A stretch of DNA of 38,438 nucleotides, from IMG/VR virus record IMGVR_UViG_2534682287_000008, positions 1 to 38,438 of that record. One strand, written 5' to 3'. Made by a program: the position numbers and the translations under genes. The notes beneath the pieces are model-generated. The model was not told where the DNA came from, made no database searches, and worked only from the letters and a program-made list of their open reading frames with translations. Position 1 is the stretch's first letter. Each line of letters begins with the position of its first letter. The DNA is from a virus. Lineage: Duplodnaviria; Heunggongvirae; Uroviricota; Caudoviricetes. Positions 6,987-30,715 of this stretch are shown piece after piece.

Positions 6987-8374
6987 TAATCACCCCATAG
7001 TGAAGAAAAGTTACTGCTGGCTGCTGGCTGTGATACCTGTGCAGGTTGAGATTGCTGCCGCTGAGATTTACCAACATTAACGTTATATTGTTGGTTGTAA
7101 TTGTTGGTGTATTCCTGAATCTCACGAATCGACTGCTGCATAGCCTCCGGGCTTGAATAGTCAACCTGCGGCATCCCCTGAAAATACATCTTCGCTTCTG
7201 CAACGGTGTTAATACCACTGGCCCCCATGTCCCTTGCTGCCGCCACACCCTGATTCTGCATTCTGCCCTGAATACGTTGTGCTGAGTTATATAACTGGCG
7301 CTGCTCTTTTCCTGTTAATCGGCTGCGAACATCAGCACCAATTGCTGGATTACCTGCACCGCCTGTCATTCCTGTCATGAAATCGAGAGCAGAAGCGTCT
7401 GCATTTGCGATCGCGTCGATATCCTTCTTCATGGCATAGTTTTGTGCTGATGCAGACGATGTTGCAGGCGCTGCGATTGAACTGGCAGGAACGCGAACCA
7501 TATTCCCCTCGTTGTCGATGCCTTCGTAGAACGCATTAGCCCCAGCGCCGTGAAGCTTCCCGCCTACCGTTACAGTTCTGCCATCTGATAACTGAACTGT
7601 ACGCTCATCATTCCCAGCGGTTCCTCTTGTTGACGCTCGCTGCATTGCCAAATCCTGCCCGCGTCGCGCAGTAGAAGCAGATAAATCCTGACCGCGCATC
7701 GTGATGTTCTGACCTCGTGCTGTTAGCGCCTCTCCGGCCTGATTGCTGCGGATTGTCTCTGCCAGTCTGCCTCTGTCAATCTCACGACCAGCCATCTTGT
7801 CCTGAACATTGAAGTAATCAATCGGACCAAGAGCAGCCATTCCGAGGTGATCAACAAACTCACCAAATCCTGAAGGATTCTGCTGATACATCTGAGCAAC
7901 GTTGTTAGGGTCAACGCCGACGCGCGCCAGTTCCTTGGCGTTGTTTTGCAGCCATGATTGCATTGCTTCTGGAGACGAGGCCGCAAGGCGTGCGCCAGCT
8001 GCTAAGGTGCCGATAGAATTACGCTGCTCTTCATCAATGAATCCCATGCCTTTACGAACGGATTCAATCTGGTCTGGATATTGAGTAGCCAACTGACGCA
8101 AAGCACCGCGATCACCAGACGCATAAGCATTAGCGTATGCCTGCTGAAATTCTTTCTGCCGCTGAGCCTGCTTTTCCTGCTGAAACACCCCCGCAATACC
8201 TGAAAGTCCTTGCAAAGCAGTCAGCCCAACATTGTTAGCGCCTGAACGCTCAATATCATTGTTCTGCCTGATAAGCTGAAGCGTATTGCCGATGTCATTT
8301 ACGCTCGGAGCGTTTGAGTTGACGCCGCCGATACCAGCCAACAATCCGCCATTTGATCCTTGCCAAGTAGCCAT
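6986..8374 (-). CDS. Ejection protein, P22 gp20-like
   Basis: 462 aa; synteny; start and stop overlap neighbours. Confidence 0.75.
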
Positions 8375-28219: not shown

Positions 28220-28251
28220 GCCCTTTTTCAGGGCGGTGATGTGTAAGAGCG
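28220..28251 (-). promoter_or_regulatory. nutR (boxA CGCTCTTA + boxB GCCCTGAAAAAGGGC)
   Basis: Minus-strand CGCTCTTAcacatcaccGCCCTGAAAAAGGGC between cro and cII. Confidence 0.75.
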
Positions 28252-29248: not shown

Positions 29249-29280
29249 CAACCTCACCACTCTAAAGCACACAACAATAA

Positions 29281-29308
29281 CCCGACCTTAGTGTCGGGTT
29301 TTCTTTTT
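29281..29308 (+). terminator. Rho-independent terminator after cI
   Basis: CCCGAC-cttagt-GTCGGG followed by TTTTCTTTTT. Confidence 0.65.
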
Positions 29309-29373: not shown

Positions 29374-29402
29374 TTGACTCGATAAAGTACAAATCGTACT
29401 AT
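29374..29402 (+). promoter_or_regulatory. pL promoter with operator in spacer
   Basis: TTGACT - 17 nt - TACTAT; spacer contains AAAGTACAAATCGTACT. Confidence 0.6.
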
Positions 29403-29441: not shown

Positions 29442-29472
29442 GGCTCTTAAAAATTAAGCCCTGAAGAAGGGC
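29442..29472 (+). promoter_or_regulatory. nutL (boxA GCTCTTA + boxB GCCCTGAAGAAGGGC)
   Basis: Sequence GGCTCTTAAAAATTAAGCCCTGAAGAAGGGC matches lambda nutL. Confidence 0.8.
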
Positions 29473-29582
29473 AGCATTCAAAGCAGAAAGCTTTGAGTAG
29501 CGCGAAATGCAGCTGCAAGACAGCAACCGTGGAGATAAGCATCACGGCGCGTTACTCAAAGCTAACTGACAGGAGAATGACC

Positions 29583-29714
29583 ATGAATAACGAAGCGCTT
29601 AAAGAAATGATTGCGAAACTCCTTGAGGACGCTCGCCGAATTCAAGAAGTGGAGCCAAACGCAGGGACACAATCACGTATTGATGAAGCGATGAAGTTGC
29701 TCAAAGGAGAATAA
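29583..29714 (+). CDS. Small helical hypothetical protein inserted in the N leader
   Basis: 43 aa (MNNEALKEMIAKLLEDARRIQEVEPNAGTQSRIDEAMKLLKGE); AGGAG 7 nt upstream; stop 1 nt before N start. Confidence 0.35.
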   Translation: MNNEALKEMIAKLLEDARRIQEVEPNAGTQSRIDEAMKLLKGE

Positions 29715-29715
29715 A

Positions 29716-30042
29716 ATGGATGCACAAACACGCCGCCGCGAACGTCGCGCAGAGAAACAGGCTCAATGGAAAGCAGCAAATCCCCTGTTGGTTGGGGTAA
29801 GCGCAAAGCCAGTTAACCGCCCTATTCTCTCGCTGAATCGCAAACCGAAATCACGAGTAGAAAGCGCACTGAATCCGATAGACCTTACGGTGCTGGCTGA
29901 ATACCACGAACAGATTGAAAGCAACCTGCAACGTATTGAGCGCAAGAATCAGCGCACATGGTACAGCAAGCCACGCAGTGAAATGGGTGTGACTTGTGTT
30001 GGTCGCCAGAAAATGAAATTAGGCAGCAAGCCACTTATTTGA
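29716..30042 (+). CDS. N: Antiterminator N (lambda-type)
   Basis: MDAQTRRRERRAEKQAQWKAANPLLVGVSAKPVNRPILSLNRKPKSRVESALNP matches lambda N. Confidence 0.9.
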   Translation: MDAQTRRRERRAEKQAQWKAANPLLVGVSAKPVNRPILSLNRKPKSRVESALNPIDLTVLAEYHEQIESNLQRIERKNQRTWYSKPRSEMGVTCVGRQKMKLGSKPLI

Positions 30043-30050
30043 GGTGAGAT

Positions 30051-30521
30051 ATGACAAAATCATGGAGCGTACCTTTTCCTGAATCAGAAACTGAACATGA
30101 TGGAATGCCTGTTTTCTGGAGATTCCAGGCGACAGTTGAAGAAGATGGAATCAAAATATTCGCACTTCAATATATAGCTTTTCATCAGACAGAGCATTAT
30201 GCATGGTTGGTTCCTGCGCATTGGATTGTTAATTTTAAACCAGCACCAAATCAGTGGTTACAGGAATGGAAACAAAAGAGAAATAGATATGCAATTAAGA
30301 AAGTAGCAAAAAATGCAGAAAGATCTTTTGCATTCCCAACGAAGAAACTTGCCATTGAAAGTTTATTGCGCCGGAAGAAATACCATTTAATGAGAATCAA
30401 ACAGGATTTGGCTGTTGTATCAACTCTTGTTGATGGGATGAAGAATATTGATACATCAACACCAGATATTGAATATAACTTTGGGCACAACCAAGAAACA
30501 GAAAATTGGGTATTTTATTAG
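30051..30521 (+). CDS. Hypothetical protein in the ral/sieB slot downstream of N
   Basis: 156 aa, GAGGTGAG Shine-Dalgarno; AT-rich 3' half; no recognisable family. Confidence 0.5.
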   Translation: MTKSWSVPFPESETEHDGMPVFWRFQATVEEDGIKIFALQYIAFHQTEHYAWLVPAHWIVNFKPAPNQWLQEWKQKRNRYAIKKVAKNAERSFAFPTKKLAIESLLRRKKYHLMRIKQDLAVVSTLVDGMKNIDTSTPDIEYNFGHNQETENWVFY

Positions 30522-30625: not shown

Positions 30626-30649
30626 GCCCTCCAGTATGAGGGCTTTTTT
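30626..30649 (+). terminator. Rho-independent terminator downstream of the 156-aa gene
   Basis: GCCCTC-cagtat-GAGGGC followed by TTTTTT. Confidence 0.65.
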
Positions 30650-30715
30650 ATATGCATACCAATAACGCTTCACTCGAGGCGTTTTCGTTATGCAATCAAA
30701 CAGAAGGAGTTACCC

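Follow-up and report, generated by a model that had tools for sequence, protein, structure and literature searches.

A conserved 43-codon reading frame inserted between the N ribosome-binding site and the N start codon in a lambdoid pL leader

The window, by which we mean the whole 38,438-nt stretch of viral DNA analysed here (IMG/VR record IMGVR_UViG_2534682287_000008, positions 1 to 38,438), is of the HK620/Sf6-like (P22-like) lambdoid genome type, with its early-left operon on the plus strand as read. Downstream of the terminator of a cI-type repressor gene (29279-29300), a promoter scan places pL (TTGACT-17-TACTAT, 29374..29402, plus strand), which aligns with pL/oL of phage Dewey and of lambda. 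The nutL site that follows (29442..29472, plus strand) is identical to that of lambda in the alignment and is made up of a boxA-like element read in the sequence, GGCTCTTA (29442-29449), and a boxB element, GCCCTGAAGAAGGGC (29458-29472), which folds as a hairpin. A boxB pattern search returned two matches in the whole window, with none expected by chance, the other being the boxB of nutR (GCCCTGAAAAAGGGC, 28220-28234, minus strand), and cognate boxB hairpins are thereby found downstream of both early promoters. Between nutL and the first ribosome-binding site, the leader forms a long stem on the plus strand (29484..29568, with arms at 29484-29504 and 29548-29568), an inverted repeat of 21 nt with 86% complementarity, which is present in both the MFE and the centroid folds (z = -3.5) and whose base, AGCUUUG/CAAAGCU, is kept across all leader variants. 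In position, this stem corresponds to the one that RNase III cuts in the lambda N leader (PMC5725501), and by analogy, cleavage would be expected here as well. A search for Rfam families in the window at gathering thresholds found none. As a minor point of folding, the MFE structures of lambda and Dewey pair GCAUUCA, just 3' of boxB, with UGGAUGC at the N start codon, and the same segment in the window (29474-29480) is instead predicted to pair with GAAUG at the first Shine-Dalgarno sequence, a weak prediction that is not conserved in two metagenomic relatives (L023 and L029).

Next on the plus strand stands CTGACAGGAGAAT (29566-29578), which contains a first Shine-Dalgarno sequence, SD1 (AGGAGAAT, 29571..29578, with GGAG at 29572-29575), collinear with GGAGAAT of lambda and Dewey. 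A spacer of 7 nt separates it from the ATG at 29583 of a small ORF of 43 aa (MNNEALKEMIAKLLEDARRIQEVEPNAGTQSRIDEAMKLLKGE, 29583..29714, plus strand), which ends in a TAA codon at 29712-29714. The final three sense codons of this ORF, AAA GGA GAA, lie within AAAGGAGAATAAA (29703-29715, plus strand) and contain a second Shine-Dalgarno sequence, SD2, so that AGGAGAAT in the codons K-G-E, the TAA, and a single-A spacer together span 29705..29715, and the GGAG at 29706-29709 stands 6 nt before the ATG of N. The N antiterminator (29716..30042, plus strand, 108 aa) carries a lambda-type arginine-rich motif, MDAQTRRRERRAEKQAQWKAAN, and is assigned to Pfam PF11438 (N36) and PHROG 271, with residues 2-36 of the product of 29716-30039 matching PF11438 at E 1.5e-26. 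The third gene, orf156 (30051..30521, plus strand), belongs to PHROG 1636, of unknown function (E 5e-112), and is followed by the first terminator-like hairpins of the operon, at 30626-30643 and 30664-30683. A promoter and terminator scan found neither kind of element within the insert. With the first terminator-like hairpins reached only at 30626-30683, transcription of the small ORF, N, and orf156 should not depend on antitermination. The sequence-only reading of this locus had described a helical ORF of 43 aa, a second Shine-Dalgarno sequence before N, and a new first gene of the pL operon, and all three descriptions hold: the ORF and its terminal GGAG are read directly in the sequence, an AlphaFold2 model of the product is a helical hairpin, and the ORF is the first cistron of the pL transcript. 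With respect to orf156 (156 aa), which lies between N and the hairpins and would also be transcribed without antitermination, we note that its Shine-Dalgarno sequence is overlapped by the N stop codon (TTTGAGGTGAGATATG). We considered orf156 as an obligate partner of the small ORF and rejected the idea, as orf156 adjoins N without the small ORF in Dewey, and the small ORF also occurs without orf156.

In an alignment with lambda (J02459) and with Dewey, a comparator that shares its immunity region and leader variant with the window, collinearity holds as far as GGAGAAT and resumes at the N ATG (ATGGATGCACAA), with a net gain of 133 nt in the window between these two points. Like the classical pL-nutL-N region of lambda, the window has a pL-proximal transcript with a boxA/boxB nutL, the conserved stem base, the ribosome-binding region CTAACTGACAGGAGAAT, and an N36-type N, in collinear order. 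However, where lambda has its Shine-Dalgarno sequence, the CCAG spacer, and then the N ATG, the window has CCAG replaced and a 43-codon gene in between, so that 137 nt separate GGAGAAT from the N ATG, and the ribosome-binding site of the leader serves another protein. The N ATG directly after the leader Shine-Dalgarno sequence (GGAGAATCCAG-ATG) is thus the feature in which the window is a variant. The 133 extra bases are an insertion exactly at the N ribosome-binding site, and its junctions are identical in E. coli TW14425 and 503440. Both the identification of the upstream sequence as the lambda N ribosome-binding region and the proposal of an insertion of roughly 130 bp are therefore confirmed by the alignment, and the two findings that would have told against that proposal, an alignment to lambda lacking the insertion or an ORF conserved in no relative, are not what was obtained. 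For comparisons of coordinates, it matters that the old lambda record J02459 annotates N as a protein of 133 aa with a start further upstream, inside the leader (L004:750-1151), while the alignment and all modern records start lambda N at ATGGATGCACAA (107 aa).

The insertion point can be placed more exactly with the help of one variant, L012 (E. coli assembly GCA_974481805.1), in which the complete lambda GGAGAATCCAG is kept and is followed by ACC-ATGAAT of the small ORF. Because L012 retains the full GGAGAATCCAG before ACC-ATG, the insertion point lies between CCAG and the N ATG; the upstream Shine-Dalgarno sequence is therefore the original one of N, and the downstream one lies in the last codons of the incoming gene. 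Read most simply, these sequences indicate that CCAG and the N ATG were parted by the arrival of a segment ACC-ATG...GGAGAATAAA. The common form, GGAGAAT-GACC-ATG, equals the L012 sequence minus CCA, and to judge from this comparison, L012 looks like the ancestral junction, followed in the others by a 3-nt deletion that optimized spacing. The distance from Shine-Dalgarno sequence to ATG is 10 nt in L012 (2990-3003) and 7 nt in all the others, which are without CCA. As for SD2, the most likely origin is that it was brought in by the insert or arose within it later; the closest allele without N downstream ends in AAA GCA GAA TAA (K-A-E) and has no Shine-Dalgarno sequence there.

The idea that the insertion had duplicated the translation signals of N, which was also part of the initial interpretation, finds no support in these comparisons. 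The window holds three copies of the shared 8-mer AGGAGAAT, where 1.19 would be expected, and as many are found in 13 of 100 shuffles; the likeness between the 3' end of the leader and the insert does not exceed that of controls, 16-24% of the shuffled or synonymously recoded sequences reaching the observed score; and L012 keeps the original GGAGAATCCAG. We also rejected a derivation of the 3' end of the ORF (GTTGCTCAAAG) from the leader (GTTACTCAAAG), since their resemblance over 11 nt is not above the shuffled and recoded controls; the codons concerned encode a Leu-Leu pair that is conserved in the family. A mobile element with target-site duplication was rejected as well, given that the repeat is within chance, that terminal inverted repeats of the insert were sought and are absent, and that no transposase or integrase is encoded, the 43-aa ORF being the only coding content.

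Is the 43-codon reading frame a gene? A chance ORF within a non-coding insertion, or an artefact of annotation, might be suspected from its very short length, from its having no Pfam family, and from the label "hypothetical protein" that it carries everywhere, including the PGAP call WP_001701111.1 in E. coli prophages. We give this suspicion practically no credence. Residues 1-43 of the product match positions 1-43 of the 43 positions of PHROG 32391 (E 3.1e-34), the exact protein is found on 247 contigs, and a family of relatives is recovered with HMMER. Between alleles, dN/dS is 0.07-0.25 at dS of 0.4 to >1 (Nei-Gojobori), and the product has a confidently predicted AlphaFold2 fold. On this comparative evidence, the 132-bp ORF is a genuine protein-coding gene. 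We place its start at 29583, because the in-frame ATG at 29577 is too close to, and overlaps, the Shine-Dalgarno sequence and is missing in diverged alleles (GGAGAAGGACC, GGAGAAGAACC); an initiation at 29577 was accordingly discarded. The run ATG ACC ATG at 29577-29585 has led some annotations to call a product of 45 aa (P0008, P0010).

The same body of evidence bears on the possibility that the ORF is a regulatory upstream ORF or leader peptide, in which the act of translation alone matters, for instance by opening structure or preventing Rho action before N, and the peptide itself is functionless. Its position would suit such a role well, as it lies in the 5' leader directly before a regulator gene, with its stop codon adjoining the start of the regulator. 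However, the amino acids of a functionless peptide should be free to vary, and those of the small ORF are instead under strong purifying selection, as the dN/dS values indicate; the product has a confident fold; its homologs occur in contexts other than leaders in distant phages, and it is kept where N is gone (see below); and neither a terminator nor alternative terminator/antiterminator structures were found between the small ORF and N. A leader peptide is thus very improbable in our estimation, though less so than an ORF arising by chance.

The pairing of the small ORF with N is itself conserved, and the two genes move as one unit. The exact protein occurs in 10 distinct contexts, and in all 10 the next gene is an N36-type N that starts 2 nt after the last base of the ORF. 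These contexts differ in their repressors, in the genes between cI and pL (rexAB, NYN, SDH-protease, P63C), in leader variants, and in downstream genes, and they also differ in the C-terminus of N, which is 108, 110, or 124 aa long. The tandem is found in hundreds of E. coli contigs, and a diverged lineage with the same arrangement is represented by the allele P0006 (Citrobacter braakii according to NCBI) and by the metagenome loci L023 and L029-L033. Since dS between the window and L023 is similar for the two genes (0.52 for the small ORF and 0.65 for N), the small ORF and N have diverged together, and the tandem is old enough for its forms in E. coli-type and Citrobacter-type prophages to differ. 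From these comparisons, we take the arrangement to be an uncommon form of the classical pL-N leader that is nonetheless stable in evolution.

The junction within the tandem is kept tight. The E. coli type reads GGAGAA TAA A ATG, L033 has GGAGAA TAA AA ATG, L030-L032 have GGGGAA TAA GC ATG, and the remaining two metagenome loci have GGGGAA TAG TT ATG (L029) and GGGGAA TAG CC ATG (L023). The spacer from stop to ATG is therefore 1-2 nt long in every N-linked allele, while its sequence varies (A, AA, GC, TT, CC), and AAA GGR GAA (K-G-E), with its SD-like GGRG, is kept in all of them but one. In the exception, allele P0011, the penultimate codon has changed from GGA to GTA (K-V-E), which destroys SD2 (L034-L036:1620-1640), and P0011 still stands before N in three contexts with different immunity regions. 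This persistence fits a mechanism in which reinitiation is able to feed N, and it makes P0011 a natural test case for termination-reinitiation. As in translationally coupled gene pairs of phages, stop and start lie within a few nucleotides of each other (UAA-A-AUG), GGAG is in the last codons of the upstream gene, and the spacing is kept among relatives; unlike in such pairs, SD2 is not predicted to be sequestered here. The folds give SD2 and the N AUG a probability of about 0.5 of being unpaired, with the full leader as well as downstream of the stem. Translation of N could thus begin on its own, and the predicted structure does not demand coupling. Other gene gaps in this operon range from -23 to +10 nt, so that tight or overlapping junctions are the norm, and the 1-2-nt spacing may merely reflect general compaction.

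Our preferred explanation of the whole, which we consider rather probable, is that a gene captured the N leader and thereby became an immediate-early cistron encoding a small binding protein, with N co-made through coupling. In an ancestor, the gene landed precisely behind the spacer of the N Shine-Dalgarno sequence and directly ahead of the N ATG, and it thereby inherited the entire N leader, from pL and nutL to the long stem of the RNase III type and the Shine-Dalgarno sequence that had been that of N. The small ORF would in this way have become the promoter-proximal, N-independent (immediate-early) cistron. N would then be translated from the strong Shine-Dalgarno sequence in the last three codons of the small gene, by ribosomes restarting after UAA, or by both routes, and we infer that it is open to direct initiation as well as to reinitiation because stop and start are 1 nt apart and a Shine-Dalgarno sequence lies in the last codons. 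Termination at UAA followed by a restart at the AUG 1 nt on would result in the hairpin protein and N being made together. In these phages, the hairpin protein would be a third immediate-early protein besides N and Cro.

The pL-N leader of lambda is a textbook case of layered control, in which antitermination is joined by processing with RNase III and by translational autorepression through an elongation factor that acts from a site about 200 nt upstream. In lambda, N and the Nus factors assembled at nutL repress the translation of N, and RNase III relieves this repression (PMC5725501, citing Wilson et al. 1997, 2002), with a structured, RNase III-sensitive leader bringing nutL near the Shine-Dalgarno sequence (PMC5725501, citing Wilson 1997 and 2002). 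In the window, the N start is 134 nt further from nutL and the stem than in lambda, behind a second Shine-Dalgarno sequence. Under our preferred explanation, the small gene would be the first to feel any control exerted at the ribosome-binding site of the leader, and N would be reached mainly via coupling, so that N autoregulation would be shifted, and the arrangement offers a natural test of the effects of distance and coupling on it.

A more modest account would see in the small ORF an independent accessory (moron-like) gene that simply settled at a permissive site, with N translated from SD2 at about the ancestral rate and its autoregulation unchanged or irrelevant. SD2 (AAGGAG with a 6-nt spacer) is no weaker than SD1 and has a predicted accessibility of about 50%; closely packed genes are usual in this operon, as described above; and lambdoid genomes are mosaic, with small genes that come and go, as the varied contexts of the tandem illustrate. 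However, with the N start 134 nt away from the leader stem and nutL, the geometry of repression described in PMC5725501 cannot be unchanged. It also sits uneasily with this account that P0011, in which SD2 is destroyed, persists linked to N, and that the length of the spacer is conserved when its sequence is not. We therefore regard an accessory gene as a less likely explanation than leader capture with coupling, albeit one with a real chance of being right. If the small protein turns out to have no striking phenotype, it would be one more small mosaic gene in a lambdoid phage.

The N-linked form is rare. In complete E. coli genomes, this N leader is carried by 868 of 5,426, the small ORF by six, and in five of these six it stands before N. 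Among phage records, the N-linked arrangement was found in none of 50,697, the insert in none of the 52 that match this leader, and the identical peptide in none by tblastn, the best match having 75% identity. More than 99% of phages with a lambda-type N are without the small ORF, and the N-linked form being so rare, the small ORF is not needed for N function. A full-text literature search returned no description of the ORF or of the ORF-N arrangement, nor any mention of WP_001701111.1 or of the family motif given below.

The search for homologs of the 43-aa peptide that had been proposed from the sequence was carried out with tblastn, PHROG, and HMMER, and relatives do exist. They lie mostly in the early-left operon beside the repressor gene in other temperate phages. 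The small ORF of the window, first gene after pL and downstream of cI, follows this pattern, and an early-left location near a repressor gene is also seen in Shigella phage 75/02 Stx, L026, L028, L047, L050, L052, and L112, among others. In 75/02, an unannotated N-like ORF precedes the relative by one or two genes; in L026 and L050, relatives likewise come after N-like genes, and in L112, the relative is the first gene after cI. Further relatives were found in a P2-like element, after gene A, and in Pectobacterium phages. Judged by these genomic positions, the family is typical of the immunity-proximal early-left operon in temperate enterobacterial phages. The unannotated ORF of 75/02 (L005:1980-2252, that is, KF766125.2 at about 7824-8096, minus strand) has an arginine-rich, N-like N-terminus (MSRKTEFKGTAASRRRAHRAEL...) and sits between the repressor gene and the first annotated pL gene; from its sequence and position, it is probably the N of phage 75/02, absent from the annotation of that record.

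A different light is thrown on the pairing by loci in which lambda-type N is missing. In the IMG/VR loci L024 and L025 and in E. coli EC12, another N-type gene (MTRRTQFKGNSRSRRRERL..., annotated as "transcriptional antitermination N peptide") lies upstream of the small ORF, which has the lambda-derived ribosome-binding site CTAACCGACAGGAGCATGACC. The stop codon of the ORF is followed there by about 30 nt that, in the window, are the end of N and the ribosome-binding site of orf156. The order in L024 (2066-2660) and in EC12 (L037:2080-2680) is N-type antiterminator, small ORF, an N remnant of about 30 nt, and then an orf156 homolog. These sequences indicate that the small gene has been retained in L024, L025, and EC12 while N was lost or replaced. 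Its being kept without lambda-type N, together with the relatives in other early-left operons, argues for a function of the small protein that is independent of N.

On the other hand, the company that the family keeps could be taken to mean that N-type antitermination, or the machinery that N uses or is limited by (RNA polymerase, Nus factors, Rho, Lon), has a dedicated partner or modulator in the small protein, in which case the arrangement would serve to have that protein and N translated together in fixed stoichiometry. Lon is the protease that degrades N. The module recurs beside arginine-rich N-like genes of unrelated types: it stands upstream of lambda N in the window, immediately downstream of the other N type in L024 and EC12, and one or two genes after N-like ORFs in 75/02, L026, and L050; and its junction with N is conserved. 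However, some relatives have no evident N-like gene nearby (those after gene A in the P2-like element, those of the Pectobacterium phages, and that of L112), the proximity to N may merely reflect that both are promoter-proximal pL genes, and nearly all phages with a lambda-type N do without the small ORF. A dedicated partner of N is therefore unlikely in our view. The corresponding bolder proposal, that N-type antitermination or the host machinery limiting N has a hitherto unrecognized early partner in the hairpin protein, and that leader capture created a self-regulating two-protein immediate-early unit, is a long shot, but if true, it would explain both the presence of the module beside unrelated N-like genes and the 1-2-nt junction.

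The protein itself points toward binding, which is how our preferred explanation describes it. Given the alignment of the family, AlphaFold2 models two helices (3-23 and 27-42) joined by a loop into a hairpin, with a mean pLDDT of 91.8. An exhaustive HMMER search of 1.84 billion representatives recovered 102 relative clusters at E <= 1e-3, where a word-indexed protein search gave just four near-identical clusters; a scan of genome contigs gave a single distant locus. The motif common to the relatives is LK..IA.LLEDA[RK]R.Q..EPNAGT..RI. In an alignment of 47 members, L13, D16, P25, R32, and I33 are invariant, and K7, A11, L14, E15, A17, N26, G28, T29, A36, and L40 are conserved in at least 90%; the window protein has all of these residues. 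Family members are either standalone proteins of 42-70 aa or one end of proteins of 70-220 aa, and the N-terminal 40 residues of PHROGs 30817, 12693, and 2982 are the same hairpin module. Compared with these, the window protein (PHROG 32391) is the bare module, whereas in the longer relatives (67-119 aa, PHROGs 30817, 12693, and 2982) it is accompanied by a disordered linker and another helical hairpin, of poor conservation; all four PHROGs are annotated as of unknown function. The 118-aa relative from Shigella Stx phage 75/02 was modeled with the same hairpin, a disordered linker, and a second hairpin, at low pTM.

Searches of Pfam, NCBIfam, PADLOC, and PDB sequences gave no match to the small protein, and a structure search with the hairpin returned only non-specific fold matches to generic hairpins. 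A close system among known proteins is LUZ24 gp4 (PDB 6yse), a small helical-hairpin early phage protein that binds a host protein. The small size, the confidently modeled hairpin, the strictly conserved loop EPNAGT, and an adjacent charged face (LLEDARR, R32) suggest a binding module, and we infer that the protein most likely acts by binding a host or phage protein very early in infection. It belongs to a widespread, uncharacterized early-left-operon family, and its expected timing makes roles in host takeover or anti-defence plausible. The most abundant member of the family in IMG/VR is a protein of about 137 aa with the hairpin module in mid-protein (L052-L106, 54 loci), which follows a cI-like repressor gene and a short conserved ORF (MDT[IL]NLGNNESLV...), a different and much commoner architecture.
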